The notes under the pieces were generated by a model. The model saw only the letters and a program-made list of their open reading frames with translations. It was not told the DNA's origin and made no database searches. Positions 39,889 through 60,059 of a stretch of DNA of 64,000 bases are shown one piece after another. The stretch covers positions 187,694 to 251,693 of the IMG/VR virus record IMGVR_UViG_3300044673_000278; one strand, given 5' to 3'. Position 1 is the first letter of the stretch; the number at the start of each line of letters is the position of its first letter. Source of the DNA: a virus (lineage: Duplodnaviria > Heunggongvirae > Uroviricota > Caudoviricetes). Both the position numbers and the translations under genes were made by a program.

Positions 39889-39917
39889 ATTATAGCAGTT
39901 CGGGTATTTTTGAGCAA
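39889..39917 (-). promoter_or_regulatory. Sigma70-type promoter P2: TTGCTC-17-TATAAT
   Basis: Minus strand: ttgctcaaaaatacccgaactgcTATAAT. Upstream of the gene that starts at 39858. Confidence 0.6.
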
Positions 39918-42177: not shown

Positions 42178-42208
42178 GTGTGCTCCTTTGTTGCTGTCTA
42201 TGTGTGTA

Positions 42209-42236
42209 TTATAGCAGACCTGGAATTTCAGGTCAA
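42209..42236 (-). promoter_or_regulatory. Sigma70 promoter P3: TTGACC-17-TATAAT
   Basis: Minus strand: ttgacctgaaattccaggtctgcTATAAT. Confidence 0.65.
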
Positions 42237-42281: not shown

Positions 42282-43409
42282 TTACAATTTTTTAACAGGC
42301 CACATTCCTGTGATGAATCCTGTAAAAGTAACATTGCCATCTATGGTATTGAAATACTTTTTGTCAACGACTTTTTGTAGATAGGCAAAATTGTCTCGTT
42401 GCAGACCTCGAAGTTTTTCTTCGTATCCAACTTTGAACAACAAAGTATCCAATCCAAAGTTCATGTCCTTGGGCTTTTCTACTTGAAAAAATCTCAAATC
42501 CAACTTGGGATAAATTATTGCTCTTGACGCAGTTTCGTAAAATTGTCTATGAGCTGGATTGCTGACCGGCCATTGGATGAATTGTTTGAATTGTGGCATG
42601 CTTTCAAAAAATTTAACCAGCAGGTGAGCTTGCTTGGCCAGGATCTTCCAGCTGTCTTTGCTCCAATAAAACAAATCAAATCCCACATTTTGTTTGTAAA
42701 ATGCAGAGCTAAACGTAGGACCGTTGGCAGTTAGTACATCTAAAAAATACAACCGATAGGCATTGTCGTTGATACACACCCTGGGTTTGTCTGTCCCAAA
42801 CACAACACCGACATTTTCACCGTTGTTGATTCGATCACGAATGGACGGAATCAGTTGCAAATCCCATTTGGCATTTGCATAGGGTGTAAAGTTGTGATTG
42901 CGATCGGCAATGAAGTCGTCAGCTAGCTTGATGCCGCTGATGGCCTCAACCCAATCGTACACAGTGATTTTTATGTTTGGGTGGTCGTTGGCTAGTTTCT
43001 GTAGTCTGGGCTTGATGTTAAAATCCCATTCCGAAAGGATATTGTTCCAACTAAAATTTGTGCTGTCAGGAACATAGGTGTTTCGTAGACTGTCTGCCCA
43101 GATTACAACAATCTCGTCGATTCGAATGTTGTTTTCTAAGCAAACGTCAAGAATGGTTTGACTGTCTGAGCCACCGCTGTACATCAGCACAAGGTAGTCG
43201 TACTTTTCTCTCAGTTGTTGAGCACGTTGTTTATACAGTTCGTAGATATCTTCGGCAGGTTCTTGTGTCCAGTCGATGTGATCAAAAAAATCATTGTTGA
43301 ATTTCCACTCAACATGAATGTTTTGTTTGGTTCCCTCCAGCAAGGCCGCAACCTTGCTGGTGAACACAGTATTGCCTACAGTATAATAACCTGTGTCGGT
43401 GTTGATCAC
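42282..43409 (-). CDS. PP-loop (SGGxDS) ATP-pyrophosphatase family protein, paralog 1
   Basis: LVLMYSGGSDSQTILDV PP-loop motif. 375 aa. A paralog lies at 50446-51606. Confidence 0.55.
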   Translation of the reverse strand: MINTDTGYYTVGNTVFTSKVAALLEGTKQNIHVEWKFNNDFFDHIDWTQEPAEDIYELYKQRAQQLREKYDYLVLMYSGGSDSQTILDVCLENNIRIDEIVVIWADSLRNTYVPDSTNFSWNNILSEWDFNIKPRLQKLANDHPNIKITVYDWVEAISGIKLADDFIADRNHNFTPYANAKWDLQLIPSIRDRINNGENVGVVFGTDKPRVCINDNAYRLYFLDVLTANGPTFSSAFYKQNVGFDLFYWSKDSWKILAKQAHLLVKFFESMPQFKQFIQWPVSNPAHRQFYETASRAIIYPKLDLRFFQVEKPKDMNFGLDTLLFKVGYEEKLRGLQRDNFAYLQKVVDKKYFNTIDGNVTFTGFITGMWPVKKL

Positions 43410-44314
43410 TGCCAGTACTTTCTGATAACAGTTCGTTGAGATTGAATGTTGTCTACAAGTTTTTGACCTGTCAACCCATCTGCACTGCTGACTGCATTGT
43501 CAGCAAAGGTTTGAAATTTTTCTTGACGGACAATAAACTCAATGCGTTTTGCTAGCAGTTCTTTAAACGCAGGATCAGCATTTTTAGGCACTGCAATACC
43601 AAACCAAGACTCAATGTTGGCTAGTTCTTTGCTGTTGAGTGCAAAATTTTGATACTGTTTGAGTCTGGAAGTTTTGCCAGTTGCAGTATAGCCAACAACT
43701 TTGAACTTGCCTTCTTCGGCTACACCAACGCCGCCGCCGGAGTCAAATGCCAGATCAAGAGTTCCGTCGATCAAGCTAGGATACATTTGAGGACCGTTTT
43801 TAAACATTACCACATTGGTATCCAAACCATAGGCCTTGGCAAGGTACTGTACTACAGTGCGGTTTGGCCCTTGAAACACACCAACGTTGATTGGTCTCTT
43901 TAGAGATTTAAGATATGAAACATATTCATCCAAGCTCTTGACTGCAGGAGTACGGTTAGGACCGTACCACACTGTGGGGAAATTTACCACTTTGACAACC
44001 ATTTCAAGATCGTCGCCGTGTGTTTTGGCATCAGGAAACAGATACTTGTTGTAAAGAATCATAGTGCCGCCAGCGCAGATAGCCTTGTTGGCAGCAGTGC
44101 TGTCTAGCATGTCTCGAGATGCAATTTCTCCTGATGCTCCTTGTTTTAAGTGCAACACAGAAGATGTTTGGAAATAAGTGTCATATGTGTTCCACAATGT
44201 GCGGCACACAGTTTCTAAGTTTCCTCCGGCAAAAGGCAACCATACATTGTTGATTTCTTTTGCGTGAGCAAAAATTGGCAGTGCCAATGCTAGGGATAAT
44301 AAAAATTTAGTCAT
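43406..44314 (-). CDS. Secreted periplasmic substrate-binding-protein-like protein (TctC/Bug-like?)
   Basis: Signal peptide MTKFLLSLALALPIFAHA. About 300 aa of alpha/beta SBP-like sequence including FDSGGGVGVAEEG. Confidence 0.4.
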   Translation of the reverse strand: MTKFLLSLALALPIFAHAKEINNVWLPFAGGNLETVCRTLWNTYDTYFQTSSVLHLKQGASGEIASRDMLDSTAANKAICAGGTMILYNKYLFPDAKTHGDDLEMVVKVVNFPTVWYGPNRTPAVKSLDEYVSYLKSLKRPINVGVFQGPNRTVVQYLAKAYGLDTNVVMFKNGPQMYPSLIDGTLDLAFDSGGGVGVAEEGKFKVVGYTATGKTSRLKQYQNFALNSKELANIESWFGIAVPKNADPAFKELLAKRIEFIVRQEKFQTFADNAVSSADGLTGQKLVDNIQSQRTVIRKYWQ

Positions 44315-44513: not shown

Positions 44514-44536
44514 AAAAAAATAGCCCTTGCGGGCTA
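44514..44536 (-). terminator. Rho-independent terminator (minus strand)
   Basis: Minus strand: TAGCCCGCAAGGGCTA hairpin followed by TTTTTTTGA. Confidence 0.6.
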
Positions 44537-44760
44537 TGAGTTACCGGTTACGTTTCCGGTGCCGCCCTATGGTGTCGGCCGTTCCACGATCACCCAACCG
44601 CTTCAACGTGTCTGCAGACCAGTGCAGTAGAGGTCAAGGCCGACTGCTACCTTTTATTAGTACCGGTTACGAATCCGGTGCAAGCATTTGGTTCTTGCCG
44701 CTCGACCCTTGGCCTTACTTTCACCCATCGCTACTTCAACATGCTTGCGCAGAGGTCAAG
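44537..44760. ncRNA. Two tandem ~110-nt structured RNA repeats (candidate riboswitch-like or sRNA elements)
   Basis: R1 spans 44537-44647 and R2 spans 44648-44760. Shared blocks are taccggttacgWWtccggtgc, tcacccaWcSctWcttcaacRtg and agaggtcaaggc. The closing stem covaries (GGCC/GGCC in R1, GCCTT/AAGGC in R2). Each repeat has a CCGG...CCGG hairpin. Confidence 0.5.
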
Positions 44761-44953: not shown

Positions 44954-45268
44954 TTAAAAGGGAATGTCATCATCCCAGAAGGATTCTACTTTTTTAGGCT
45001 TGGGTGCAACATAATCAGGATCGCCAAAGTTATTGAACACTTCCTGATAGTCGCCGCGCAGCCTGTCCTGATTGTCAGTAAGAATCTCTATCTTTTCAAG
45101 TTCAGTCCATGGGCGGTCCGGATGGTGGATTGTTACATATCCGTTTGTATATGTACCTTGCCACGCACCGTTTACTACCCAGAAGTCAAACTCTGTTGGT
45201 GATTTTTCTTGCTCAACATCAACTAGCAGACTAGGCTGATCTTTTGTACCTAACATTAATCTCATCAC
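44954..45268 (-). CDS. Hypothetical protein
   Basis: 104 aa. Confidence 0.5.
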   Translation of the reverse strand: MMRLMLGTKDQPSLLVDVEQEKSPTEFDFWVVNGAWQGTYTNGYVTIHHPDRPWTELEKIEILTDNQDRLRGDYQEVFNNFGDPDYVAPKPKKVESFWDDDIPF

Positions 45269-46203
45269 GCACCTACAAAGTTACGAACCCATGCCAGTCG
45301 AGCTTGCTCGTCCATGGCTGTATACTCCGCAATGTTAGCACGGATAGCATCCACCAAGGGATAGTATTCTTCGTCTAGATTGTGCTTGATGTCCCGGTTC
45401 AAGTCCACTAGCTTGTCTGTGCGTGGATTGCGGGCAACCCATTTTGAAGTCAAGTAGTAAGGTGATTTGATCTTGGCACTTACACCATCTTGAGTATAGA
45501 ATACATAACCTTCGTGCTTACAACCTTTGGCATCTTCTTTTAATTGTGCCATAGTCAAGAATCCTGCGGCTGGACTATAACAGTTAAAAGTGTTGGCCAA
45601 ATCTAGGATTACCCCTGGGCTGTGACCAACCTTGCTACGCCACGAGTTTTCACGATAGCCTAGTACATACATGCCTGGCTTTTCTGGTATGATGTGCGGA
45701 TCGTTTGGGTGAACACATTCGAACATCACAGTCATGCCACGCAAGTCGTCATTGGCAAAAGCCATTTGCCAATCAGCCCATGGAGCATGAGTTAGCATCA
45801 TTTCCTTGGCCATGGCAACATAGTCGCTGTCTGTGCTACCTGTAGTAGACACTAGAACATCTCCGTTATACCAAGTGCAAGCAACCATAAAGCCGTTGAC
45901 CTTACGGAATGCAATTACTTCAGTCTCGTCTGAGAGCACTGGTGCTTCTTTTTCGATACCGTAGTTATAAATCTTGGTAAAAGGATACGACACCAAGTTG
46001 AAGTCGGCATCTACAATAGACCCGCGACATTCAGCAATGTAGTCGTTCCACAGGTTATCGTAGAATACCTTCTTCTTGTATTTCAGCACATAGATACCTT
46101 CGCCGGCTGGCTTCATATTCACCAGCCCTGAAGTCTCTACATACCGCTTCAATTCTTCTTTAAACACTTTCAACTCCGAAATGCTGTTTGAACAAATTAG
46201 CAT
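45265..46203 (-). CDS. Putative ATP-dependent RNA ligase (nucleotidyltransferase superfamily, Rnl-like)
   Basis: Candidate motif I RKVNGFMV (Kx[D/N]G), motif IV EGYVFY and motif V DGVSAKIK. 312 aa, a size typical of phage RNA ligases. Confidence 0.45.
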   Translation of the reverse strand: MLICSNSISELKVFKEELKRYVETSGLVNMKPAGEGIYVLKYKKKVFYDNLWNDYIAECRGSIVDADFNLVSYPFTKIYNYGIEKEAPVLSDETEVIAFRKVNGFMVACTWYNGDVLVSTTGSTDSDYVAMAKEMMLTHAPWADWQMAFANDDLRGMTVMFECVHPNDPHIIPEKPGMYVLGYRENSWRSKVGHSPGVILDLANTFNCYSPAAGFLTMAQLKEDAKGCKHEGYVFYTQDGVSAKIKSPYYLTSKWVARNPRTDKLVDLNRDIKHNLDEEYYPLVDAIRANIAEYTAMDEQARLAWVRNFVGA

Positions 46204-46402
46204 CTGTTGAATCTTTAATCACAATGCTAAAGTTAAGTTTGTTTGATTCCGCTGAATAATAAAATTCACCAGAGCCATTTGTTCTAAGCCAATCTAACAC
46301 TTGGGATTGGTTAGGTTGACCCGGGGGCCAGGGTATAACAGTCCAGCCGCGTTCCTGCATCTTGGCAAAGGATGAACGATAATAGCGGCCGGTCTCTTTC
46401 AT
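46160..46402 (-). CDS. Hypothetical small protein
   Basis: 80 aa. Confidence 0.4.
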   Translation of the reverse strand: MKETGRYYRSSFAKMQERGWTVIPWPPGQPNQSQVLDWLRTNGSGEFYYSAESNKLNFSIVIKDSTDANLFKQHFGVESV

Positions 46403-46404
46403 TC

Positions 46405-46635
46405 TTAAACTCCGAAATGTTGTTTAATCAATACCTGTGCTGTGTCCATTGTTTGTGATGCCACAACACGATCAAGACCATCCAAACGATTCATTTCTGC
46501 TATCAATACATCGGCACATTCCCGAACAATCAACTCGGCGAACTTTTTATATTGAAAATCATCAAGATCGACTCGACCCCATGCATCAAGCCTTGCGCCA
46601 GATTGCATCATAAGTTCATCGATTCGTTGGTTCAT
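46405..46635 (-). CDS. Hypothetical small protein
   Basis: 76 aa. Confidence 0.4.
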   Translation of the reverse strand: MNQRIDELMMQSGARLDAWGRVDLDDFQYKKFAELIVRECADVLIAEMNRLDGLDRVVASQTMDTAQVLIKQHFGV

Positions 46636-47180
46636 TGTTCAACTCCTACATATCGGCTGGCCTCAGCATGAAGACCTCGGTCACCCTTGGTCATCACTGC
46701 AAGGAGAAGTCTCTTTTCTTCGAGATAAACTCGAGCAAACTCAGGATCGTGTTGCATGATGCTTCGGCTGTTGCTGATAAGGTCAGCGAGCTTGATCGTC
46801 TGAACTTCAGCAGGTGCTTGAGCAGTGTGCTCACGGTCGATACGCTTGCGAGTGGCTCTGTTGCCATCTTCGGGTCGACTCACATCTGTAAGCCAGTTGA
46901 CCATAGTAGCAATGTCGATACCGAATGCCATGTGTACGTCAGTAAACGTGCAACCAGTATCTTCGATCACATCGTGAAGCCAAGCAGCCGCAACCATGTC
47001 AGGGGTACTACCCGGAACGCTGGCAACAATGCTGGCAACTTCTGCTGGGTGAACGATGTAAGGCTCACCGGTATACTTGCGGACTTGCTTCACACTGGCG
47101 TGAGCAGCCATGGCATACACTTGCGCCTTGCGCACAACGTCCATACCGCCAAGTTCCATAGTAAATCCTTCCATGCTCAC
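46632..47180 (-). CDS. HD-domain metal-dependent phosphohydrolase
   Basis: H...HPAEVASIV...LHDVIEDT is the HD motif. 182 aa. Confidence 0.6.
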   Translation of the reverse strand: MSMEGFTMELGGMDVVRKAQVYAMAAHASVKQVRKYTGEPYIVHPAEVASIVASVPGSTPDMVAAAWLHDVIEDTGCTFTDVHMAFGIDIATMVNWLTDVSRPEDGNRATRKRIDREHTAQAPAEVQTIKLADLISNSRSIMQHDPEFARVYLEEKRLLLAVMTKGDRGLHAEASRYVGVEQ

Positions 47181-47198
47181 TCCTTATCCAACACATGT

Positions 47199-47227
47199 AT
47201 TATAACATTTTGGGAAATTCTGGGCAA
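47199..47227 (-). promoter_or_regulatory. Sigma70 promoter P4: TTGCCC-17-TATAAT
   Basis: Minus strand: ttgcccagaatttcccaaaatgtTATAAT. Nearly identical to P5. Confidence 0.65.
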
Positions 47228-47229
47228 CT

Positions 47230-47258
47230 AAAAAAGTAGTATTCAATCACTACTTTTA
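47230..47258 (-). terminator. Rho-independent terminator (minus strand)
   Basis: Minus strand: AAAGTAGTGATTGAATACTACTTT hairpin followed by TTTAG. Confidence 0.55.
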
Positions 47259-47636
47259 AAGGCCCAACAGTTCACGTTCTTCGTCGCTCAGCAGTTCACG
47301 AACCTTGCGTTCTGCTTCCTTCTTGACTTGATAGCGGCGTTCCAATTCGGCACGTTCTTCTTCGAGACGATCAACAGTGTAAGTCAAGTCTTCCAGTGCC
47401 GCTTGGCCACCTTCACTCCAAGCATAGGTCAGAAAATAGTCGCTACGATAACGATCGTTGCGGTCCTCGACGTTGAAACGCCCGTCTTTAACAGTCAACG
47501 TCAAAGTAGGTTCTGCGCTAACACGCTCTAGCAGGTTCATCAGTCGCAGTGGGTAAGCAGAGCGTTCTGCTTCCAGACGTTCTTCACGCTCGCGGGCTTC
47601 ACGTTCCAGACGCTCTGCTTTGGTTTCACGTGCCAT
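47256..47636 (-). CDS. Hypothetical charged coiled-coil protein
   Basis: 126 aa, Glu/Arg-rich. Confidence 0.45.
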   Translation of the reverse strand: MARETKAERLEREAREREERLEAERSAYPLRLMNLLERVSAEPTLTLTVKDGRFNVEDRNDRYRSDYFLTYAWSEGGQAALEDLTYTVDRLEEERAELERRYQVKKEAERKVRELLSDEERELLGL

Positions 47637-47666
47637 TTTGGGCTCCTTGTTTCTTACTATGCTCTA

Positions 47667-47695
47667 ATTATAGCATTTTGGGAAATTCTGGGCAA
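47667..47695 (-). promoter_or_regulatory. Sigma70 promoter P5: TTGCCC-17-TATAAT
   Basis: Minus strand: ttgcccagaatttcccaaaatgcTATAAT. Confidence 0.65.
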
Positions 47696-47697
47696 CC

Positions 47698-47723
47698 AAA
47701 ATTTTGTAATACTCAAGTATTAC
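47698..47723 (-). terminator. Rho-independent terminator (minus strand)
   Basis: Palindromic hairpin GTAATACTTGAGTATTAC followed by AAAATTTTGG. Confidence 0.5.
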
Positions 47724-47724
47724 A

Positions 47725-48267
47725 TTAGTGATGCGCCCGAATTGCACCCTTTAGCGCATCTGCAATCATAGCATCAAAGTCGCTGACCACACGGCCTGTG
47801 GCGTCAAACGCAACGTCACGAGCGCGATACCCCTCCATGCCTGTTTTACCACCGTGAACGTGTCCATAAAAATGCACAGCGCCACGATGCATTTGATCCC
47901 ACTCCCAAATAGGGTAGTGCATCATAATGACCAAGGTACCGTTGTGGTTATAACGCAGGTACTGATGTGTTTCACGTAAGCAGGCTCGGAACTCAGGGTC
48001 TTGCAACAGCTTGCGATCGTGGTTGCCCTCGATCAAGATCTTGGCACCGTTGAGTCGATGCATGATGTTTGCTGCCTTGGGTGCAGGCAAGAATGCCACG
48101 TCGCCTAGGATAAACACTTCGTCCTCGGGTGCAACACTTCGGTTCCATTCTTCAATCATGCACTCGTTCATATGGTCCACATCACGGAACCCTGCACGGG
48201 TCACAGGACAGAACTTCATGATGTTGGCGTGACCAAAGTGCAAGTCACTGGTGATCCACTTTTTCAT
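47725..48267 (-). CDS. Calcineurin-like metallophosphoesterase
   Basis: Motifs TSDLHFGH, ILGDV and GNHD. Start set to MKKW (ATG at 48267) overlapping the upstream stop. Confidence 0.65.
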   Translation of the reverse strand: MKKWITSDLHFGHANIMKFCPVTRAGFRDVDHMNECMIEEWNRSVAPEDEVFILGDVAFLPAPKAANIMHRLNGAKILIEGNHDRKLLQDPEFRACLRETHQYLRYNHNGTLVIMMHYPIWEWDQMHRGAVHFYGHVHGGKTGMEGYRARDVAFDATGRVVSDFDAMIADALKGAIRAHH

Positions 48268-48728
48268 TATACTCTCCAAATTTCTGCAAAACCTTCTTCC
48301 AAGGTTGGCATTTCAAAACTGTAAATCATAGACTTGATCACAGCATCAGGAATGTTCTTGCCTGGGCGACTGGCAAGTCGACGAGCAAGCTCTGCACCGT
48401 CGGGCGTGGCAAATACCACAGCAATATGCTCATAGTCGGGCAGCATGGCAAACTTTTTGCGTCGAGACTTGATGTTGACTGAAGTTTGATCCCAGATCAC
48501 ATCCAGGCCGTTCTCCCTACAATGCACAACATGATCAGCCATGAGTTTCACAGCAGTTGGCATGTATTCGTCAAACACTTCTGAGTAGGTTCGACCTTGC
48601 TGGGCAGCATAGGTCTCAACGTGCGCATCAGTGCTGACAACGTTCAAGCCCAGAGCCCAGGTTTGATTACGTATCCAGGTACTTTTGCCCGATCCGGGCA
48701 CTCCGATCAATTGATAACAGCGAGGCAT
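48267..48728 (-). CDS. P-loop polynucleotide-kinase-like kinase (T4 Pnk kinase-domain-like)
   Basis: CYQLIGVPGSGKSTWIRNQ matches the T4 Pnk N-terminal Walker A region (GCPGSGKSTWA). About 153 aa. Start taken as MPRCYQ. Confidence 0.55.
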   Translation of the reverse strand: MPRCYQLIGVPGSGKSTWIRNQTWALGLNVVSTDAHVETYAAQQGRTYSEVFDEYMPTAVKLMADHVVHCRENGLDVIWDQTSVNIKSRRKKFAMLPDYEHIAVVFATPDGAELARRLASRPGKNIPDAVIKSMIYSFEMPTLEEGFAEIWRV

Positions 48729-49207
48729 TATCGATCCCATCCTATGTTAGTATTCCTCCAATCATTGTCATGATCGTAGGGTTTTTCGTTGCTGTCGTAA
48801 GTCCAGCCCAGTTGCCGCATCAACTTCTGTTTGACACGCAAGTTAGGAATTCTAGTGCGTTCGCAATCTTGGAATCCCATCATTACACCCACCTCGGCCA
48901 CAGCGCCTGAACGGCAGATACCAGCATAGCAATGCACGACCACGTTCATGTGATTAGCTAGTGCATGTTTCAGCAAGCTCACAATCTCTGCGGCTTGAGT
49001 ATCGCTGATTTTTGCTTCGTCTGGGAACCCGTCTCGGTCCTCAGCGTCCAGGAACTCAAAGCGATGTGTTTCTTTGAACTCATGCGCAGGGGTGGGCCAC
49101 CACGAGGTAGCAGGATCCATGATCTGGATCAGCATGCTATTAGCACCGGCTTCGTGATGAAATCTCAGTGGTATATCAGCGGCAGCAACGTTTTCGATCC
49201 AGGGCAT
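48728..49207 (-). CDS. Cys-based (CX5R) dual-specificity/PTP-like phosphatase
   Basis: VVHCYAGICRSG is an HCxxGxxR(S/T) active-site motif. Confidence 0.6.
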   Translation of the reverse strand: MPWIENVAAADIPLRFHHEAGANSMLIQIMDPATSWWPTPAHEFKETHRFEFLDAEDRDGFPDEAKISDTQAAEIVSLLKHALANHMNVVVHCYAGICRSGAVAEVGVMMGFQDCERTRIPNLRVKQKLMRQLGWTYDSNEKPYDHDNDWRNTNIGWDR

Positions 49208-49226: not shown

Positions 49227-49255
49227 ATTATAGCACATCAGGAGATTTGGATCAA
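49227..49255 (-). promoter_or_regulatory. Sigma70 promoter P6: TTGATC-17-TATAAT
   Basis: Minus strand: ttgatccaaatctcctgatgtgcTATAAT. Confidence 0.6.
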
Positions 49256-49268
49256 GTATACCTAAGTA

Positions 49269-49520
49269 TTACTTTTGATTTCTACGCTGATTGCGCTCTG
49301 TGGGTGCGTCTTTGAGCAAGTAACTGCGGCCAATCAAGCCGTGTTCAATTTCGCCTAGCGCAGTTACGCCTGCACTGTGGTTGCTCAACAGCTTGGGTCG
49401 ATGCCCAGCATTGAGTTCTCGGGTTCTAGCAGCCGCAATCAAGATAAGGTCATATCTGTTGCCCACTGCTTCAACAGCACCGCTGCTGGAAATTCCTGTT
49501 AGTTCGTCAAGTTTCTTCAT
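49269..49520 (-). CDS. Hypothetical small protein
   Basis: 83 aa. Confidence 0.45.
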   Translation of the reverse strand: MKKLDELTGISSSGAVEAVGNRYDLILIAAARTRELNAGHRPKLLSNHSAGVTALGEIEHGLIGRSYLLKDAPTERNQRRNQK

Positions 49521-49882: not shown

Positions 49883-50458
49883 CATTGTTTGACGAATGAA
49901 ATAATCTGGAGCTTGCTCAACCGACAGCAACCACGGGTAGATCGGGGTTTTGAACTGAAATTTATAAACTCCGTTTTGACCAGCAAACTCTCCAGGCACT
50001 TGGGGTTGGTTGTTGTTTTCGCACCAATACTGTCCGGTGTCTTCGATCACACGGTGCATAGACAAATTTTCTATGTGTACAGAGTCAATTCTTATCATGG
50101 TTGATACTTCGCCAATGTCTGGTATAAAATCATGATGTTTGGAATCAAATCCAGACATTGTGATCTGCAAGCAATGATCTACCTGAGTTTCAGAATCTTC
50201 GAACAGATGATTTAACACTATACTTTTGTCAAGTGTACTGCTGATTAAAATTTTGCCGTCGAGCTCTATTGATACATGTAACTCTTGGTATGAATACTGA
50301 TACCGATCACCGAATCGCTGACGGTGGTCACTGCTGGGCACCCATTCTTGTTGATTGATCATGGTACCACTTGATAAAGCTATATCAATGGTTGCTTGTT
50401 TAATGTATGACGGCTTTCCCGGAATAGGCTGATAGTACATAATCTTCAGTGTATGCAA
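49880..50458 (-). CDS. Hypothetical protein
   Basis: 192 aa. Confidence 0.5.
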   Translation of the reverse strand: MHTLKIMYYQPIPGKPSYIKQATIDIALSSGTMINQQEWVPSSDHRQRFGDRYQYSYQELHVSIELDGKILISSTLDKSIVLNHLFEDSETQVDHCLQITMSGFDSKHHDFIPDIGEVSTMIRIDSVHIENLSMHRVIEDTGQYWCENNNQPQVPGEFAGQNGVYKFQFKTPIYPWLLSVEQAPDYFIRQTM

Positions 50459-51606
50459 TTAAAAATATAATCAAGACTGTTTCCGTACTTGGTATCAAAC
50501 TCTTTCTTGCTCAACAGAGGTAAGTTGTCTGTTCTAATCACAGATAAATCATCCAATATGCATATCCATCTTAGATCTAGCAATTCTGTTTTCTTACGTT
50601 TATAAACTGAAAATTGTATGCTATTCGCCTTGCATGTGTTTTCTAAGTATTCGTGACTTGGATAAAATTGATGGATGTACTCTTTTAGAAATTTTTTGTA
50701 GGTTTTATATTCGCCGCCGGGTTCAATGATACGGTCGGTATTGTTCCACATGTAATCTTCGAATTCTGCAAAATCAAAGAAACCTTGAAACATGTCGATT
50801 GATGGTGATTGTTGGTTGAAGAAAAAATTGATATCCCTTGGTACAAACACCTGGCTTTTGTTTATAGAATAAAACCACCACCTGGCTTCTAAAACTGTTC
50901 GAATATCTTTTCCGGATTTGCGAAAGTATCCTTCGCAAAAATCAATTAGCTGTTGATTTTGTGTTTTTTTGTAGAAAAAATCTTTCCAGCTTTGTAACAG
51001 GCCGTTGGGGCCTATACTTTCAAAAAAAGTGTCGTCGATGCTTGCAGTGAATTCGTCACCGCCGTGACCGGTAATGTTAATACCATCAAATGTGTTGTTG
51101 ATGTATATGTCACCGCTGATATCAACTGTTTGTAAGCTAGGGAATTTTTTTGTCACAAACTCAAAAAAATCACGATTCTCGTAAAGACTATAGGGAGAAT
51201 AGATTAGCCTGAGTTGGTCAATGTTGGGTGCATGTTTTAGAAAAGCAGTGACCATAGTGGTAGAATCTATGCCACCGCTCCAAAACAAGTTGAGATGATG
51301 ATTTTGTTGAGTGTATTGATTAACTCGATTGTGGAAAACAGTTTCTAAGGGTAGATTTGTTTGTGGGGGTTGCCAGGGCCGGATCACATGAAAATTCAGC
51401 GGCCACTTGAGTTCGGCTGTTCGATCCACAGGGTCACCTTTTGGCTCTGTAGAAAAAATAGCATTGATATCAACTAAATGATTGTAATCAACAAAATCTT
51501 TGATTTTAAAAATTTCGCCTACTTGTTGATAGTTGATATTTTTCCAACGAAGTAGATTAAAAAAATACTGATGGTTAACTGCCAACAGCAGAGGTTTTGA
51601 AATCAT
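50446..51606 (-). CDS. PP-loop (SGGxDS) ATP-pyrophosphatase family protein, paralog 2
   Basis: LFWSGGIDSTTMVTAF. 386 aa. Confidence 0.55.
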   Translation of the reverse strand: MISKPLLLAVNHQYFFNLLRWKNINYQQVGEIFKIKDFVDYNHLVDINAIFSTEPKGDPVDRTAELKWPLNFHVIRPWQPPQTNLPLETVFHNRVNQYTQQNHHLNLFWSGGIDSTTMVTAFLKHAPNIDQLRLIYSPYSLYENRDFFEFVTKKFPSLQTVDISGDIYINNTFDGINITGHGGDEFTASIDDTFFESIGPNGLLQSWKDFFYKKTQNQQLIDFCEGYFRKSGKDIRTVLEARWWFYSINKSQVFVPRDINFFFNQQSPSIDMFQGFFDFAEFEDYMWNNTDRIIEPGGEYKTYKKFLKEYIHQFYPSHEYLENTCKANSIQFSVYKRKKTELLDLRWICILDDLSVIRTDNLPLLSKKEFDTKYGNSLDYIFNCIH

Positions 51607-53643: not shown

Positions 53644-53720
53644 TGGTGCCCCCAGCGGGACTCGAACCCGCAAAATTCTGATTTTGAGTCAGACACGTAT
53701 ACCAATTCCATCACAGGGGC
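53644..53720 (-). tRNA. tRNA with anticodon CAA (Leu-type anticodon) but class-I architecture
   Basis: Acceptor GCCCCTG/TGGGGGC, A73, CCA encoded. Anticodon stem TCTGA/TCAGA with loop CTCAAAA. Variable arm only ATTTT. T-arm GCGGG-TTCGAGT-CCCGC. Confidence 0.5.
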
Positions 53721-53777
53721 ATTGGTTATTCAAGTATATATTATACTTGAAGTCTGGTTTGTTGTAAACCAGGTTCT

Positions 53778-53855
53778 TGGTCGGTGTAGCAAGATTCGAA
53801 CTTGCGACCCCTTGCACCCCATGCAAGTGCGCTACCCAGGCTGCGCTATACACCG
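53778..53855 (-). tRNA. tRNA-Pro (GGG)
   Basis: Anticodon stem CTTGC/GCAAG with loop ATGGGGT. T-loop TTCGAAT. CCA encoded. Confidence 0.6.
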
Positions 53856-53936
53856 TAATTGGCACGCCCTTCGGGAATCGAACCTTCGACTCTGTGGTTT
53901 TGGACACCCAGAGATCAGCCAGAGTGAGCGCATGAT
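53856..53936 (-). pseudogene. tRNA-like remnant (Trp-like anticodon loop UCCAAAA; no acceptor stem)
   Basis: Contains GGTTCGATTCC and GTCCAAAACC, but the acceptor and T stems do not pair. Confidence 0.3.
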
Positions 53937-54012
<76 letters not shown>

Positions 54013-54467
54013 ATTATATTCGTTCGCGCTTGACGCGACCTATGCGACTGGCTTTGTTCCAGTCATATGCAACACCGTCTGGGCAAACACCATCACGAAT
54101 GCTGTCTACTCCAAACATACCTACAATTTCAAAACCATCGCCTGAGATGGTAACAAAACGATTCAACAACTTGGCATGAGCCATTGCTAGATCCAGTCCA
54201 GCAAACGATGTTTCTACACCGTCACATTCAACTATAAACAATTTTTTCTCTTTTCTCTACAACAACAATAAAATGCAAACAACCGGTTTCGCTAGGGCGT
54301 GTGGCTGAGGACTATCGACCAGGGTTTGGCGCTCCGGCTCCCACAATGGATAATCTTTGACACCGGCAACAGTCAGGAACCTCTCATTCCTGCAACTTTC
54401 CGTCAGATGCGCATCACTGCGCAGAGCCATCCGGGGTATTACCCCTACACGTTTTTTGTTTGCAAAC

Positions 54468-54544
54468 TGGTGCCCTGGGCGGGACTCGAACCCGCAGCGC
54501 CACGGACCTCAACCGTGTGTGTTTGCCAATTTCACCACCTGGGC
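54468..54544 (-). tRNA. tRNA with anticodon GAG (Leu-type) but class-I architecture
   Basis: Anticodon stem CACGG/CCGTG with loop TTGAGGT. A73. Variable arm GCGCT. One A-A mismatch in the acceptor stem. Confidence 0.45.
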
Positions 54545-54555
54545 ATAGATCTTGG

Positions 54556-54631
54556 TGCGTGATGAGAGATTCGAACTCCCGACATCCAACGAGTCAAATT
54601 GGCACTCTACCAACTGAGTTAATCACGCAGA
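54556..54631 (-). tRNA. tRNA-Val (GAC), tentative
   Basis: Acceptor GCGTGAT/ATCACGC. Anticodon loop TTGACTC with a pyrimidine at position 37. T-loop TTCGAAT. Confidence 0.5.
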
Positions 54632-54680
54632 TTGCTGATTACTTGTCCTATTATACGCCATCAGCAAAGGCGAAGCTTGG

Positions 54681-54755
54681 TGTCCCTGGTAGGAATCGAA
54701 CCTGCATCTACTCTTTAGGAGAGAGTTGTTCTATCCATTGAACTACAGGGACTGA
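54681..54755 (-). tRNA. tRNA-Arg (CCT)
   Basis: Acceptor GTCCCTG/CAGGGAC. Anticodon loop CTCCTAA. Confidence 0.6.
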
Positions 54756-54760
54756 GATGG

Positions 54761-54836
54761 TGCCGCCTCCCGGGATCGAACCAGGTTCCAAGGATTTTCA
54801 GTCCTCCGCAATGACCACATTTGCTAAAGCGGCATT
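54761..54836 (-). tRNA. tRNA-Phe (GAA)
   Basis: Anticodon loop CTGAAAA. T-loop TTCGATC. Confidence 0.6.
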
Positions 54837-54838
54837 AT

Positions 54839-55001
54839 TTCTTTGGTGCAGGAACTTTCTTCAGCAGTTCACGTTTGATCAAACAATCACGTTGAGTGCC
54901 TTCGCGAAATACTCGCAAGTATTCCACACCGTCTATGCGTTGCACATCCTGAAGATTTGTGCAATAAAAACGTTCACGGTTTCGCATGTTTTCAAAATAC
55001 A
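54839..55001 (-). CDS. Small hypothetical protein (53 aa), not in the ORF track
   Basis: AAGGAG SD 7 nt upstream of the ATG at 55001. Protein: MKTVYFENMRNRERFYCTNLQDVQRIDGVEYLRVFREGTQRDCLIKRELLKKVPAPKK. Confidence 0.45.
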
Positions 55002-55037
55002 CTGTTTTCATAGATGTGCTCCTTGTTGAATTTGAGT

Positions 55038-55190
55038 AAATGCTTGTAGGATTCGAACCTACCCCTGCGTCCGCCTTCTCCGCTTACTCAGTCTGCAAAC
55101 CTTTAATCGGATACTACCTTCTGCTGTGCTAGCCAGTACACCTAACAACCTGTCCGAGTTCATTGCAGTGCCCTCGGAGCAGTCTCAAAA
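55038..55190 (-). ncRNA. Conserved ~150-nt structured element, copy A, ending in a tRNA-like T-arm
   Basis: Shares long conserved blocks (CACTGCAATG, TAGCACAGCAGAAGGTAGTA, GTTTGCAGACTgAGTAAGCGGaGAAGGCGGACGCAGGG, TTCGAATCC) with copy B at 56745-56900. Confidence 0.45.
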
Positions 55191-55193
55191 CTT

Positions 55194-55541
55194 TTACCAG
55201 TAGTAGAGATGTGGCTTGCGACCCACGCTGGGCACGTCAGCATCCACAAGATCTTCTACTCGATATTTTACAATTTGTCTCTCCCACTCTCGGCCACGAG
55301 TACGTTGTGGCTGATTCATAAACTCACGCACCCACCACATGGGAGTGGGCATGCCGTGATATTCTTGGTAGTGACGTTTTTTCTTGGTCTTTACTCCGGG
55401 CTTCTGAATGTAGCACCAGAAGTTATACCAGTACTGAAACTCAGTGCTCCACTTCTGATATGGAACTCGTTCCATACCATAATCCCAGCGAGACTCGGGA
55501 TATCTGAGTTCCCAAGGTTGATCTTTATACGATCGTGACAT
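55194..55541 (-). CDS. Hypothetical Trp/Tyr-rich protein
   Basis: 115 aa. Confidence 0.5.
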   Translation of the reverse strand: MSRSYKDQPWELRYPESRWDYGMERVPYQKWSTEFQYWYNFWCYIQKPGVKTKKKRHYQEYHGMPTPMWWVREFMNQPQRTRGREWERQIVKYRVEDLVDADVPSVGRKPHLYYW

Positions 55542-55597
55542 AGTTTTCTCCTTAGTATCACAATCGCATAATCATCTCCTTGTAAAAAATTATTTAG

Positions 55598-55689
55598 TGG
55601 TGGAAGCGGTGAGATTCGAACTCACGGGACCTGTTAAGGACCGACGGTTTTCAAGACCGTTGCAATAAACCGGGCTCTGCCACGCTTCC
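55598..55689 (-). tRNA. tRNA-Ser (TGA), class II
   Basis: Acceptor GGAAGCG/CGCTTCC. Anticodon loop CTTGAAA. Long variable arm. Confidence 0.65.
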
Positions 55690-55696
55690 GTTGTCT

Positions 55697-55774
55697 TGGA
55701 GTCTCGGGTAGGATTCAAACCTACGAATCAAACGCTTTGCAGGCGCAGCCATTAAATCACTCTGGTACCGAGAC
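55697..55774 (-). tRNA. tRNA-Cys (GCA)
   Basis: Anticodon loop CTGCAAA. U73 discriminator. Confidence 0.55.
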
Positions 55775-55781
55775 ATGAAAT

Positions 55782-55858
55782 TGGTCGGAGTACAAGGATT
55801 CGAACCTTGGACCTCTTGCTCCCAAAGCAAGCGCACTACCAGGCTGTGCTACACTCCG
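55782..55858 (-). tRNA. tRNA-Pro (TGG)
   Basis: Anticodon stem CTTGC/GCAAG with loop TTTGGGA. Confidence 0.6.
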
Positions 55859-55865
55859 AATAAAC

Positions 55866-55940
55866 TGGTACCTGGACACGGTTTCGAACCGCGGACCCTC
55901 TCCGTGTAAAGGAGACGCTCTACCCCTGAGCTATCCAGGC
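55866..55940 (-). tRNA. tRNA-Val (TAC)
   Basis: Anticodon loop TTTACAC. T-loop TTCGAAA. Confidence 0.6.
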
Positions 55941-55946
55941 AATGTT

Positions 55947-56020
55947 TGGAGCGGCGTGCGAGAATCGAACTCGCGACTTTAGCTTGGAAGGCTAAGGTAA
56001 TACCATTTTACGAACGCCGC
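55947..56020 (-). tRNA. tRNA-Gly (TCC)
   Basis: Anticodon loop CTTCCAA. U73. Confidence 0.6.
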
Positions 56021-56218
56021 TTAAATACACTATGCAACAACGTGACTTCTATGCTGCCAACGGTTGGGTGCAAATACACCTCTGCGTCAACGACACAGCA
56101 GACACCTGCTACATCTACGTCAATGATATTTACAATCAAAAACTGACCATGCGTTTTTTCACGGACACCACGGAAGCGATGTTGTGGATCAACAGCATAG
56201 ACACATTGTGAATATCAC

Positions 56219-56295
56219 TGGTGCCGCCACATGGATTTGAACCATGGACCCCCGCCTTATCAAGACGGTGCTCTAACCAACTGAGCTATGGAGGC
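56219..56295 (-). tRNA. tRNA-Ile (GAT)
   Basis: Anticodon loop TTGATAA. T-loop TTCAAAT. Confidence 0.6.
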
Positions 56296-56436
56296 AAATT
56301 TTTTCAACTACTTTTTAAAGAACAAACTGCATTGTAACAGCAATATCTTTGTTTGTCAACTGGCCGGTCCTGCAGGAATCGAACCCACATCGCCAAGTTC
56401 GAAGCATGGCATTCTATCCGTTGAAATAAAGGCCCT

Positions 56437-56511
56437 TGGTGGTTGTAGTTGGTATCGATCCAACCTCCTGGGCTTATGAAGCCCGTGCGCATCCGTCTAC
56501 GCCATACAACC
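56437..56511 (-). tRNA. tRNA-Met or Ile2 (CAT)
   Basis: Anticodon loop TTCATAA. T-loop variant ATCGATA. Confidence 0.55.
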
Positions 56512-56521
56512 AAAACTTCTT

Positions 56522-56596
56522 TGGGGTGACCACTGGGAATCGAACCCAGACTAAGAGAATCACAATCTCTGTTGCTAACCGTTACAACATGGCCAC
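56522..56596 (-). tRNA. tRNA-His (GTG)
   Basis: Anticodon loop TTGTGAT. C73. Confidence 0.6.
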
Positions 56597-56744
56597 ACCA
56601 AAGAAGTTTACCATATAAAAACACTCCCAATATCGGTTCAATGCTGGCACAAAGAACCTTTCGCCTCTGCCAGGAGACCGAAGAGATCGCCCGCTTCAAT
56701 TGCGGGATCTGTCCGTCACGAATGTTTTTATATGGTGACAAACA

Positions 56745-56900
56745 AATGCCTTGGGATTCGAACCCAACCCTGCGTCCGCCTTCGCCGCTTACTAAGTCTG
56801 CAAACTTTTCGTCGGGTACTACCTTCTGCTGTGCTACCAACACACCATGCAGCCTGTCACAAGCCATTGCAGTGTCTTGTGAGCAGTCTTGTACCATATA
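56745..56900 (-). ncRNA. Conserved ~150-nt structured element, copy B, ending in a tRNA-like T-arm
   Basis: Homologous to copy A. T-arm TTGGG-TTCGAAT-CCCAA. Confidence 0.45.
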
Positions 56901-57186
56901 GAAACACACTAACGAACCTGGCTGTGGGGTTCGACCCCACTGTTTCCCGTAGCACCAGCGGTACTGCTACGATACCGGTTAATGTGTTTGCATATGGCGG
57001 TACATGAGTTAACCTAAAACTAGTCTAATATCGCGGCCGCAATATTTCGTCTATGTCTTAGGATATACACGTTGGTACCTTGCGTACCTCACGTACCATA
57101 TGTAAACACACTAAAGCTCTCTTATCTGCATCACTAGACATTTTGTCGTAGCGTCGGTCATTGTACCCGATTAATGTGTTTGCATA

Positions 57187-57260
57187 TGGTAGGGGTGTTC
57201 GGGAACGATCCGAATTTTACCGGTTAAAAGCCGGTTACTTCACCTTAAAGTTTCACCCCC
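57187..57260 (-). tRNA. tRNA-Lys (TTT)
   Basis: Acceptor GGGGGTG/CACCCCT. Anticodon loop CTTTTAA. T-loop variant ATCGTTC. Confidence 0.55.
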
Positions 57261-57263
57261 ATA

Positions 57264-57338
57264 TGGTCCACAGCCTGAGAATCGAACTCAGTTAATCCGG
57301 GTAAGAGCCGGGTACTTCGCCAGCAAAGTTTGCTGTGG
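57264..57338 (-). tRNA. tRNA-Lys (CTT)
   Basis: Acceptor CCACAGC/GCTGTGG. Anticodon loop CTCTTAC. T-loop TTCGATT. Confidence 0.55.
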
Positions 57339-57424
57339 ATGGATTTCGTATTAAATTATCTTTAACGAGCCATCCATGTTACCATACGGGGTTACAGAAT
57401 GGCTCTACATTTTAGCAGTTCGCT

Positions 57425-58186
57425 TCATATAGTTCCTTGTTTAATTCTTCCTCTAACCCAACCGATAGGTATACTATCAGTAGAGTTTTGTCTTTTGTTA
57501 CTAACTCCGTCGTTAATCCAAATTGTGCCACGATTATTGCCATAATTTAGATTTGCTTTGTCTTCGCTAGTTCGTTTTGATACAGTTTCTTTGTATGCCT
57601 GTATCCTTCTTTCTTTATCACCAAACCCGACACCTTTATATAAAGCAGACATTTTAGCAGATTGTTTTTCTTTCCTGCTGTTAAGTTCTTCTTCAGGCTT
57701 GTTGATCCAAGAATTGCATTTTTGTTTGTAGACTTCCTTTTCCTCGGGCGTTTTGTTGGCCCACGGATTAGAGTGTTTTCTGTGTTGCTCCTTCTTCTCT
57801 TCAGGCAACGTTTTCCAATATTCTTTTTTAGAGTTTTTATAATCTTCTCTTAACTGGACAAATTCATCAACAGTTAATTGGCGACGGTCTACTCTGTTGG
57901 TAGTCATTAAATGAAACGCACATGACATTTGCTGATTACCATATGCTTTCCACAATAGGTAATGTGCTTCGTAATGTTGGGCGGTAGTCAAGTGTACCAC
58001 ATTTGATTTTTCATTTGAGCCTCCCATACTACGTGGCAAAATATGATGTAGTTCGGTTTTTAAGTTGCTGTCACTAACGGCACTCGCTATTAGCGTCATA
58101 TACAAATCTAAAAACTCTTGATTTTTCGGTGTAGGTAATAAGTCTTTCATATACTTATTTAGTCCACACGCACTATTCTGCACCAT
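57425..58186 (-). CDS. HNH homing-endonuclease-like protein
   Basis: HHILPRSMGGSNEKSNVVHLTTAQHYEAH is an HNH motif. 253 aa, inside the tRNA array. Confidence 0.6.
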   Translation of the reverse strand: MVQNSACGLNKYMKDLLPTPKNQEFLDLYMTLIASAVSDSNLKTELHHILPRSMGGSNEKSNVVHLTTAQHYEAHYLLWKAYGNQQMSCAFHLMTTNRVDRRQLTVDEFVQLREDYKNSKKEYWKTLPEEKKEQHRKHSNPWANKTPEEKEVYKQKCNSWINKPEEELNSRKEKQSAKMSALYKGVGFGDKERRIQAYKETVSKRTSEDKANLNYGNNRGTIWINDGVSNKRQNSTDSIPIGWVRGRIKQGTI

Positions 58187-58256
58187 ACGGGGGTCTAGGA
58201 TGACACTATGGTTTGCCTGAGCGTTTCATAGTGTTACCTCTTTTGTTTAAGTTCTA

Positions 58257-58285
58257 ATTATACAACAATTGCAGAATGTTGTCAA
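58257..58285 (-). promoter_or_regulatory. Consensus sigma70 promoter P7: TTGACA-17-TATAAT
   Basis: Minus strand: ttgacaacattctgcaattgttgTATAAT. Upstream of the HNH gene. Confidence 0.7.
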
Positions 58286-58294
58286 CTGTTTTTT

Positions 58295-58372
58295 TGGTGC
58301 GTCCCGAGGAATTCGAATCCCCAACCTCACGGCTTCGTAGGCCGGTGTTCTATCCAGTTGAACTAGAGACGC
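58295..58372 (-). tRNA. tRNA-Arg (ACG)
   Basis: Acceptor GCGTCTC/GGGACGC. Anticodon loop CTACGAA. Confidence 0.6.
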
Positions 58373-58377
58373 GGTGT

Positions 58378-58457: not shown

Positions 58458-58460
58458 TGT

Positions 58461-59117: not shown

Positions 59118-59182
59118 ATTATCTCCTATGTTTATTTAGCCCAGTCTGCTGCTCTACCTGATGAGCTACCGCGGCGTTGAAT

Positions 59183-59260: not shown

Positions 59261-59269
59261 ATTAGAAGT

Positions 59270-60054: not shown

Positions 60055-60059
60055 AAATT

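Follow-up and report, generated by a model that had tools for sequence, protein, structure and literature searches.

Organization of the gene cluster

The 64,000-nucleotide (nt) stretch of DNA analysed here, referred to as the window, corresponds to positions 187,694–251,693 of the IMG/VR record IMGVR_UViG_3300044673_000278 (Caudoviricetes). Near-identical DNA was not found among 50,697 phage records, and the phage is uncultured. The 44.5–49.3 kb region of the window is a run of open reading frames (ORFs), all on the minus strand, and carries a candidate gene set for the healing and sealing of RNA ends. An initial annotation had located five enzymes within 45265–49207. All of them are found there, on the minus strand, with coordinates that coincide exactly with ORF ends and with intact catalytic residues. 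The genes and their predicted products are as follows.

48728–49207, minus strand: divergent dual-specificity (CX5R) cysteine (Cys) phosphatase, 159 amino acids (aa); weak matches to dual-specificity phosphatase (DSP) and protein tyrosine phosphatase (PTP) models over the HCX5R loop
48267–48728, minus strand: P-loop kinase of the 5'-OH polynucleotide-kinase clade, 153 aa from the ATG at 48728; Pfam AAA_33, 2.4e-20
47725–48267, minus strand: binuclear metallophosphoesterase of the aq_1665/AQ1575 type, 180 aa; phrog_547, 1.6e-47
46632–47180, minus strand: RelA/SpoT-type HD hydrolase (small alarmone hydrolase homologue), 180–182 aa; Pfam HD_4
45265–46203, minus strand: short Rnl1-family ATP-dependent RNA ligase, 312 aa; Pfam RNA_lig_T4_1 and phrog_562

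RNA ligase and kinase

The ligase matches RNA_lig_T4_1 with 44.4 bits (cut-off, 28.3) and phrog_562 of the PHROGs collection at 6e-51. T4 Rnl1 is the only match obtained by phmmer in the PDB. A profile of the ligase family retrieves the T4 Rnl1 structures at 9e-28, the next match scoring 9e-5, and no Rnl2 occurs among the matches of this profile to solved structures. By sequence, the protein initially described as an Rnl-type ligase falls firmly within the Rnl1 family. The motifs KVNG (K101), FECV (E162), EGYV (E231) and KIKS (K244, K246) are readily aligned to T4 Rnl1, in which the equivalents of R60, K101, E162, E231/G232 and K244/K246 are R54, the nucleophile K99, E159, E227/G228 and K240/K242, respectively. 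A set of 13 diverse homologues shows no variation at R60, K101, E162, E231, G232, K244 and K246, and motif residues are at least 97% conserved in a set of 75. The initial annotation had named the lack of a conserved lysine nucleophile as the observation that would speak against a ligase; since K101 aligns with T4 K99 and is conserved, the lysine has not been lost.

The ligase is not an equivalog of T4 RnlA, as it scores 29.9 bits against the TIGR02308 model, the cut-off of which is 242. Approximately 66 residues follow motif V, versus approximately 132 in T4 Rnl1, and the profile alignment stops at T4 residue 296. At the other end, most relatives align from ligase residue 13, and a GTG codon at 46167 is properly spaced from a GGAG sequence; the real start may therefore be at 46167. 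The ligase is present in 706 phage records, and 239 relatives, 74–84% identical, are found in IMG/VR on contigs up to 364 kb in length. One end of the 737-position family phrog_8238 is matched by the ligase (3.1e-17), and the N-terminal end is weakly matched by the kinase (0.003).

The kinase gives, in addition to the AAA_33 match, weaker matches to polynucleotide-kinase models. A family profile built from the ligase-linked kinases of 20 phages was compared with solved structures, and the best match was T4 Pnk (5.5e-15), followed by Capnocytophaga Pnkp1 (2e-14), the tRNA kinase PSTK, the kinase domain of Clostridium thermocellum Pnkp (CthPnkp; 4e-12) and mammalian PNKP (1e-9). The profile, which aligns from T4 Pnk residue 1, bears out the resemblance to the T4 Pnk kinase domain that had been noted in the Walker region, and the kinase is, by sequence, a member of the polynucleotide-kinase (T4 Pnk) clade. 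In the GxxGxGK(S/T) P-loop, G9, G14 and K15 are invariant, as are D34 and T82, and R117 in the lid is nearly so. This conservation spans two subfamilies only approximately 20% identical to each other. D34 aligns with the catalytic aspartate in the DDY segment of T4 Pnk. At 153 aa, the protein consists of the kinase domain only, and a fused C-terminal 3'-phosphatase domain of the haloacid dehalogenase (HAD) type (DxDxT) is absent. TIGR04075, the model for bacterial Pnkp, matches the kinase alone, with 25.6 bits against a cut-off of 750.

Metallophosphoesterase

The metallophosphoesterase features the five metal-binding motifs of calcineurin-like enzymes (DLH, GD, GNHD, H and GHVH), and D8, H10, D56, N82, H83, H117, H136 and H138 are invariant in the family. 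At the 0.01 threshold the window protein has no Pfam match, while some homologues carry PF00149 or PF12850. The AlphaFold2 (AF2) model, which shows the sandwich fold of the calcineurin-like superfamily, has a predicted local distance difference test (pLDDT) score of 90. In Foldseek searches, this model is closest to Aquifex aq_1665 (1xm7, E 3e-8), followed by the Pseudomonas putida nuclease MPE (6nvp, 5e-4); LpxH was also matched. Lambda phosphatase ranks 37th (E 0.058). The family profile matches a single PDB entry, 1xm7, and this search retrieved neither CthPnkp nor lambda phosphatase. Fold rank and profile search together rule out an enzyme of the lambda-phosphatase/CthPnkp type. The initial label of calcineurin-type phosphatase is correct as to the intact binuclear active site; the protein is, however, of the aq_1665 type and lacks the arginine associated with monoesterase activity.

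Motif II reads GDVAF, with A58 and F59 invariant, and thus has no equivalent of CthPnkp Arg237. This arginine is needed for monoesterase, but not for diesterase, activity, and metallophosphoesterases without it, such as Mre11, MJ0936 and Rv0805, act as diesterases only (Keppetipola and Shuman 2007, PMC2190708). By analogy, the enzyme is predicted to be a 2',3'-cyclic phosphodiesterase rather than a monoesterase, unable to complete end healing alone. A weak NCBIfam match to PdeM (TIGR04123; E 0.003, 17 bits versus a cut-off of 150) was also recorded.

Approximately 19,000 sequence clusters make up the aq_1665-type metallophosphoesterases. Fusions to a kinase or a ligase were looked for in the 150 best of these family representatives and not found; the only fusion seen there is to HD_4. 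It occurs in P0250 and P0391, two 356-aa metagenomic proteins from two sources that differ at five positions. Both are natural fusions of an aq_1665-type metallophosphoesterase and an HD_4 domain, with both active sites intact.

Cys phosphatase

The initial identification of a CX5R phosphatase holds, as the active-site loop (HCYAGICRSG) is intact, and both HCxAGxCRSG and D54 are invariant in the family. The protein is a divergent version of the dual-specificity-phosphatase fold, with an HCX5R(S/T) P-loop on a PTP fold, and all of its fold matches are generic protein or lipid dual-specificity phosphatases. Every family member gives weak, sub-threshold Pfam matches, which include PTP-SAK (the "Swiss Army Knife" RNA-repair PTP) and PTP-NADK. 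The 2066 homologues detected in metagenomes are accompanied by one in a single cultured phage, the cyanophage BUCT-ZZ01.

A further 79 loci, more diverse and 26 of them with full flanks, were compared around the Cys phosphatase. Of these, 35 have the metallophosphoesterase and 25 the kinase at a distance of 5 kb or less, often directly adjoining. Distances of 300 nt or less separate the Cys phosphatase from the kinase in 17 loci and from the metallophosphoesterase in 12, in several gene orders. Only 5 of the 79 have a ligase in the vicinity.

HD hydrolase

The single-domain HD protein matches HD_4 with 57.1 bits (cut-off, 27.2; 2.3e-15) and positions 2–124 of the TIGR00691 profile. In the PDB, it matches Rel (1.5e-15), Mesh1 (1e-13) and small alarmone hydrolases (SAH; 1e-4). 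The residues H44, H69, D70, E73, D74, D133 and N137, which form the pattern H...HD...ED...D...N, are at least 97% conserved. The initial annotation had counted this protein in the nick-healing set. The Rel, Mesh1 and SAH structure matches identify it instead as a RelA/SpoT (Mesh1/SAH) hydrolase, and the notion of a generic RNA 3'-phosphatase of the HD type was abandoned on the same grounds. The chemistry known for RelA/SpoT hydrolases is the release of pyrophosphate from the 3' position of the alarmones (p)ppGpp and (p)ppApp and of tRNA CCA termini, so that a part in the healing of anticodon nicks is unlikely for the HD protein. Judging from its sequence, it most likely acts on 3'-pyrophosphates, either those of the two alarmones or those that toxSAS/CapRel-type defences place on tRNA CCA ends. 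MESH1 and ATfaRel reverse the 3'-pyrophosphorylation of tRNA CCA ends by toxSAS toxins (bioRxiv 10.1101/2021.04.30.441581), and both HD-alarmone esterases and calcineurin-like esterases have been listed among the counter-nucleotide-signal enzymes of jumbo phages (Iyer et al. 2021, PMC7824862). Homologues of the HD protein are present in 260 phage records, and in five separate cultured-phage lineages the HD gene recurs within the ligase cluster.

An RNA polymerase omega-subunit homologue is encoded at 49269–49520 on the minus strand (Pfam Rpb6, 41.5 bits; TIGR00690, 33.3 bits versus a cut-off of 23.6). It is located 2 kb upstream of the SpoT-like gene, an arrangement reminiscent of the rpoZ-spoT pair of bacteria, and several related contigs show synteny between it and the cluster. 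The only omega matches among the 50,697 phage records resemble bacterial rpoZ-spoT DNA and were set aside.

Conservation of the cluster in other phages

Gene neighbourhoods were compared in 80 related viral contigs, 33 of which have full flanks. The partners found beside the ligase are as follows.

Metallophosphoesterase: 78 of 80 loci; 33 of 33 full-flank loci
Cys phosphatase: 71 of 80 loci; 31 of 33 full-flank loci
Kinase: 51 of 80 loci; 26 of 33 full-flank loci
HD protein: 50 of 80 loci; 21 of 33 full-flank loci

All partners are on the ligase strand and are arranged in 11 different orders among the related loci. The recurrence of the same genes, on the same strand, beside the ligase across 80 contigs and in 11 orders indicates that the clustering is not due to chance. 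The loci compared span 20 kb, so that a ligase located elsewhere in genomes showing only the kinase, metallophosphoesterase and Cys phosphatase would not be seen.

Similar associations are observed in cultured phages. In ACP17, RSP15, ZCKP1, pEp_SNUABM_01, rV5, PAK_P4, Athena and Pyxpy02, an AAA_33 kinase lies beside the ligase, and a metallophosphoesterase lies within approximately 2.5 kb. Overall, each of the nine ligase-centred loci examined in cultured phages has a metallophosphoesterase within this distance of its Rnl1 ligase. HD_4 is also kept in ACP17, RSP15, PAK_P4 and Pyxpy02. Kinases of the window type adjoin a full-length Rnl1 in two T4-like phages, Cr30 and BUCT-ZZ01, and in the latter, a cyanophage, the ligase, kinase, metallophosphoesterase and Cys phosphatase are all found within 8.5 kb. 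The conserved linkage of ligase, kinase and metallophosphoesterase across many phage lineages fits an RNA heal-and-seal pathway.

In PAK_P4 (locus 5280–8791) and Pyxpy02 (5845–8939), the ligase cluster is followed by genes for a ribose-phosphate pyrophosphokinase (Prs)-like and a nicotinamide phosphoribosyltransferase (NAMPT)-like protein and, in PAK_P4, also by a macro domain. This Pseudomonas-phage neighbourhood suggests a larger counter-defence island.

Putative transcription and translation signals

The remaining features of the cluster and its surroundings are listed below. Promoter and terminator sites are consensus matches only.

49227–49255, minus strand: promoter-like site P1 (TTGATC-17-TGcTATAAT), upstream of the Cys-phosphatase gene
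47667–47695, minus strand: promoter-like site P2 (TTGCCC-17-TGcTATAAT)
47256–47636, minus strand: small charged ORF, 126 aa, poorly conserved, with its own promoter-like site
47199–47227, minus strand: promoter-like site P3, near-identical to P2
46405–46635, minus strand: small ORF, 76 aa, of a multi-copy family (MNERIxEL...KFAELIVxEC...HFGVEE) with 46 homologues in related loci
46160–46402, minus strand: small ORF, 80 aa, probable insertion, with a flanking 20-nt direct repeat, AAACARCATTTCGGAGTT
44954–45268, minus strand: small ORF, 104 aa, overlapping the ligase stop; counterparts in 4 related loci
44520–44537, minus strand: terminator-like hairpin (ATAGCCC-GCAA-GGGCTAT, then a T run) that closes the cluster
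53644–63067, minus strand: array of 33 tRNA genes, on the same strand as the cluster

Homologue lengths (180 aa for the metallophosphoesterase) and independent gene calls indicate that the true starts of the kinase and the metallophosphoesterase are at M5 of the listed ORFs (48267–48740, 157 aa, and 47725–48279, 184 aa, respectively). With these starts, the Cys phosphatase/kinase and kinase/metallophosphoesterase junctions are both TAATG one-base stop/start overlaps. Read from the sequence, the three genes are translationally coupled via these junctions.

A sigma70-like extended -10 motif (TTGNNC...TGNTATAAT) occurs in 5 copies on the minus strand of the window, versus 0.03 expected by chance. 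Aside from P1, P2 and P3, whose positions coincide precisely with the cluster's three intergenic gaps, copies are found at 42208–42236 and 39889–39917. P2 and P3, which flank the 126-aa ORF, differ at one position over 29 nt. The three tandem promoter-like sites and the terminator-like hairpin frame three putative units. The first consists of the Cys-phosphatase, kinase and metallophosphoesterase genes, the second of the 126-aa ORF, and the third of the genes for the SpoT-like HD hydrolase and the Rnl1 ligase, with two small ORFs between them. If real, the promoter-like motifs would imply transcription by the host polymerase and, probably, early expression.

Comparison with known systems

In phage T4, RNA is repaired by Pnkp (PseT) and RNA ligase 1 (RnlA, gp63), which counter the anticodon nuclease PrrC. 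To our knowledge, this is the sole phage repair pathway with worked-out biochemistry. The window cluster shares with it the ligase family, with motifs I, III, IV and V aligned, the kinase clade and the heal-then-seal logic. In contrast, the T4 kinase is fused to a HAD (DxDxT) 3'-phosphatase, whereas the window kinase stands alone and is accompanied by the metallophosphoesterase and the Cys phosphatase, and the window ligase is approximately 60 residues shorter than T4 Rnl1 at the C-terminus. The bacterial Pnkp-Hen1 and Pnkp1-Rnl-Hen1 systems of Clostridium thermocellum and Capnocytophaga gingivalis similarly unite a kinase of the polynucleotide-kinase clade with a binuclear metallophosphoesterase and an ATP-dependent RNA ligase. 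These domains are, however, joined in one polypeptide and include a lambda-phosphatase-like esterase with Arg237, whereas the window has three separate genes and an aq_1665-type enzyme. Moreover, the Hen1 methyltransferase was not found among the ORFs scanned around the window cluster; RtcB, RlaP, a CCA-adding enzyme and Tpt1 were also not found among these neighbouring ORFs.

The closest parallels are the phage triads of the rV5-like, phAPEC8-like, PAK_P-like and Otagovirus-like groups, Thalassavirus, ACP17 and RSP15, in which the same three families are found close together and the ligase is 33–45% identical. In these triads, in contrast, the kinase is shorter (134–150 aa, approximately 20% identical to the window kinase), and the Cys phosphatase is missing. 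As for the HD protein, Mesh1, ATfaRel and PaSpo of phage SSU5, which neutralises toxSAS toxins, are likewise single-domain RelA/SpoT hydrolases, but the window and several other phages place the HD gene inside an RNA-ligase cluster. HD proteins have been linked to end healing before. In Runella slithyformis HD-Pnk, an HD phosphoesterase cooperates with a polynucleotide kinase and, within the same repair cluster, a ligase (PMC6097658), and Pnk of phage RM378 is an HD-domain end-healing enzyme (cited in PMC2190708). In the Runella protein, however, the HD domain is fused to the kinase, whereas that of the window is separate. The window protein clearly belongs to the RelA/SpoT subfamily.

The initial annotation had described a split architecture, with a calcineurin-type enzyme in place of the HAD phosphatase. 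The concept has been published, since Iyer et al. (2021, PMC7824862) describe phage ATP-grasp RNA ligases whose partners are polynucleotide kinases and phosphoesterases of the HAD, calcineurin-like or HD type. In addition, the triad is annotated in many genomes, including rV5-like, phAPEC8-like and PAK_P-like phages, sometimes as "RNA ligase/RNA repair". The split architecture is therefore not new. Less ordinary are the coupled Cys-phosphatase/kinase/metallophosphoesterase sub-module, known from one cultured phage only, and the metallophosphoesterase-HD fusion. Descriptions of these two features, of the predicted diesterase-plus-monoesterase logic and of the association of HD genes with ligase clusters were not found in the literature examined, and a biochemical study of the ligase-kinase-metallophosphoesterase triad was not found in the open-access literature searched.

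Possible function of the cluster

Systems that target tRNA, such as PrrC, RloC, PARIS, retrons, Cas13, Cas12a3 and CapRel, are now regarded as a major arm of bacterial immunity. The cluster described here is probably an RNA end-healing-and-sealing gene set of an uncultured large phage. The protein families, the active sites and the conserved linkage all fit the initial proposal that it supplies the kinase, phosphatase and ligase activities required to heal nicks; a part of the proposal that does not stand is the HD protein, given its RelA/SpoT character. In the pathway that we envisage, the metallophosphoesterase would open the cyclic phosphate as a diesterase, and the Cys phosphatase, a monoester hydrolase by chemistry, would remove the remaining 2'- or 3'-phosphate. 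The kinase would then phosphorylate the 5'-OH, and the ligase, adenylylated on K101, would seal the break. The co-located HD hydrolase would probably do a different job and may associate physically with the repair enzymes. A tRNA substrate, a host nuclease such as PrrC or RloC as the trigger, and the roles given to the Cys phosphatase and the HD protein are putative. The initial annotation had also connected the set with a genome rich in tRNA genes, and the count of more than 30 is confirmed by the 33 found in the window.

Several observations weigh against this reading. The arginine of the T4 Pnk DDYR segment, three residues after the catalytic aspartate, is a valine in the window kinase. In the metallophosphoesterase family, an invariant residue elsewhere, Arg24, could restore monoesterase activity; moreover, aq_1665, the closest solved relative, has no known function, and the second closest is a single-stranded DNA nuclease. 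The region of the ligase C-terminal to motif V is about half as long as the T4 Rnl1 tRNA-binding (tRNA-specificity) domain, and nothing in the data singles out tRNA over other RNAs as the substrate. Partners are missing within 5 kb in 12 of the 26 full-flank Cys-phosphatase loci, and a ligase is present in only 2 of the 26, so that the Cys phosphatase is not tied to the ligase. In cultured phages, the closest homologues of the HD protein are found in unrelated contexts. Finally, the functions of all five proteins are predicted from sequence, and none, as far as the literature shows, derives from activity measured in these subfamilies.

These distributions of the Cys phosphatase and the HD protein would be expected of a loose counter-defence island, in which RNA would be repaired by the ligase, kinase and metallophosphoesterase only, the HD protein would blunt the stringent response or toxSAS toxins, and the Cys phosphatase would be an unrelated protein or small-molecule phosphatase. 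The scattered contexts of the best HD matches among the 260 phage records, the frequent occurrence of the Cys phosphatase alone in related phages and its exclusively generic fold matches are in line with such an arrangement. So are the PAK_P4 and Pyxpy02 clusters, which abut Prs/NAMPT-type NAD genes and a macro domain, as is typical of accessory islands, and the omega homologue upstream of the SpoT-like gene, which points to stringent-response control. An island of this kind nonetheless appears unlikely. Translational coupling ties the Cys phosphatase to the kinase and metallophosphoesterase, beside which it recurs in several orders in the diverse loci, while the HD protein resides inside the ligase cluster in five cultured-phage lineages and its domain is fused to the metallophosphoesterase in P0250. 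A further, rather doubtful proposal is that the cluster holds several tools for the 3' ends of tRNA and would thereby meet different host attacks simultaneously. The SpoT-like HD hydrolase would strip the 3'-pyrophosphate placed on CCA ends by CapRel/toxSAS defences, the metallophosphoesterase, devoid of the arginine, would open the 2',3'-cyclic phosphate produced by anticodon nucleases, the Cys phosphatase would clear the monoester, and the kinase and short Rnl1 ligase would finish the repair. If this is true, the metallophosphoesterase-HD fusion and the repeated presence of HD_4 in ligase clusters would reflect one physical 3'-end-healing machine.

The same fusion ties the esterase to an alarmone-type hydrolase and would suit a quite different role, in which the ligase is functionally separate. 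The other four proteins would take free nucleotides or nucleotide signals as substrates, for instance alarmones, 2',3'-cyclic nucleotides or phosphorylated derivatives of NAD or ADP-ribose. The trio of kinase, metallophosphoesterase and Cys phosphatase frequently lacks a ligase within 10 kb, PTP-NADK is among the weak Pfam matches of the Cys-phosphatase family, and calcineurin-like and HD-alarmone esterases are counted as anti-nucleotide-signal enzymes by Iyer et al. (2021, PMC7824862). However, the best solved matches of the kinase profile are polynucleotide and tRNA kinases rather than nucleotide kinases, phrog_8238, a family that combines kinase and ligase, is matched by the kinase over its N-terminal part, and the metallophosphoesterase accompanies Rnl1 in nine of nine ligase-centred loci, all of which makes a role in nucleotide signalling improbable. 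The metallophosphoesterase could, in principle, be an end-trimming nuclease similar to the ligase-associated PdeM/MPE of Pseudomonas, the module as a whole processing damaged DNA or RNA ends instead of taking off phosphates. MPE is its second-best structural match, PdeM is matched in NCBIfam, and a GNHD motif combined with a motif II devoid of arginine is the Mre11/diesterase pattern. The resemblance to 6nvp is nevertheless weak (template modelling (TM) score 0.47, 18% identity), the PdeM score is far under the cut-off, and the partner is an RNA ligase and not a DNA ligase; a nuclease of this kind is highly improbable.

A healing-and-sealing role for the cluster, which we continue to prefer, would concern many phages, as the core triad is found in hundreds of sequenced genomes, including those of the therapy-relevant PAK_P-like, rV5-like and phAPEC8-like groups. 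Metallophosphoesterases of the aq_1665 type would gain their first assigned role if the reading is true. If confirmed, it would also reveal whether the alarmone hydrolases of phages have a second function in the repair of tRNA ends.

Small ORFs and other features of the window

Among the small ORFs of the cluster, that of 126 aa has no Pfam, PHROG or NCBIfam match and is present in only 2 related loci. The 104-aa ORF has no Pfam or PHROG match, and the 80-aa ORF has zero homologues in related loci. The 76-aa ORF has no family match; its homologues often adjoin the ligase in related loci, and the conserved C-terminal codons of this family contain a GGAG sequence able to serve the next gene. The 80-aa ORF, unrelated to the 76-aa family, shares the same C-terminal ending (KQHFGV). 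A simple duplication was rejected as the source of the shared ends, as the motif is also the conserved C-terminus of the multi-copy small-ORF family.

The tRNA array includes, at 61488–61950 on the minus strand, a full-length GOLLD RNA (Rfam RF02032; 198.9 bits versus a gathering score of 150, E 4.7e-55), in which a tRNA-Lys(UUU) gene (61817–61888) is embedded. Rfam gives an extra weak tRNA-like match at 59187–59259 on the minus strand (31.5 bits), which is not called by ARAGORN. An ORF of the array (58527–59117, minus strand) combines a zinc finger with a match to Pfam Phage_endo_I (1e-8) and may encode a homing-type nuclease.

Downstream of the cluster, a homologue of TctC/Bug-type periplasmic solute-binding proteins is encoded at 43406–44314 on the minus strand (Pfam TctC, 3.4e-8); its hydrophobic N-terminus, read by eye from the sequence, resembles a signal peptide. 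Two minus-strand ORFs, 42282–43409 (375 aa) and 50446–51606 (386 aa), feature an SGGxDS PP-loop-like motif and have no Pfam match. A distant copy of this PP-loop-like ORF recurs in related contigs.

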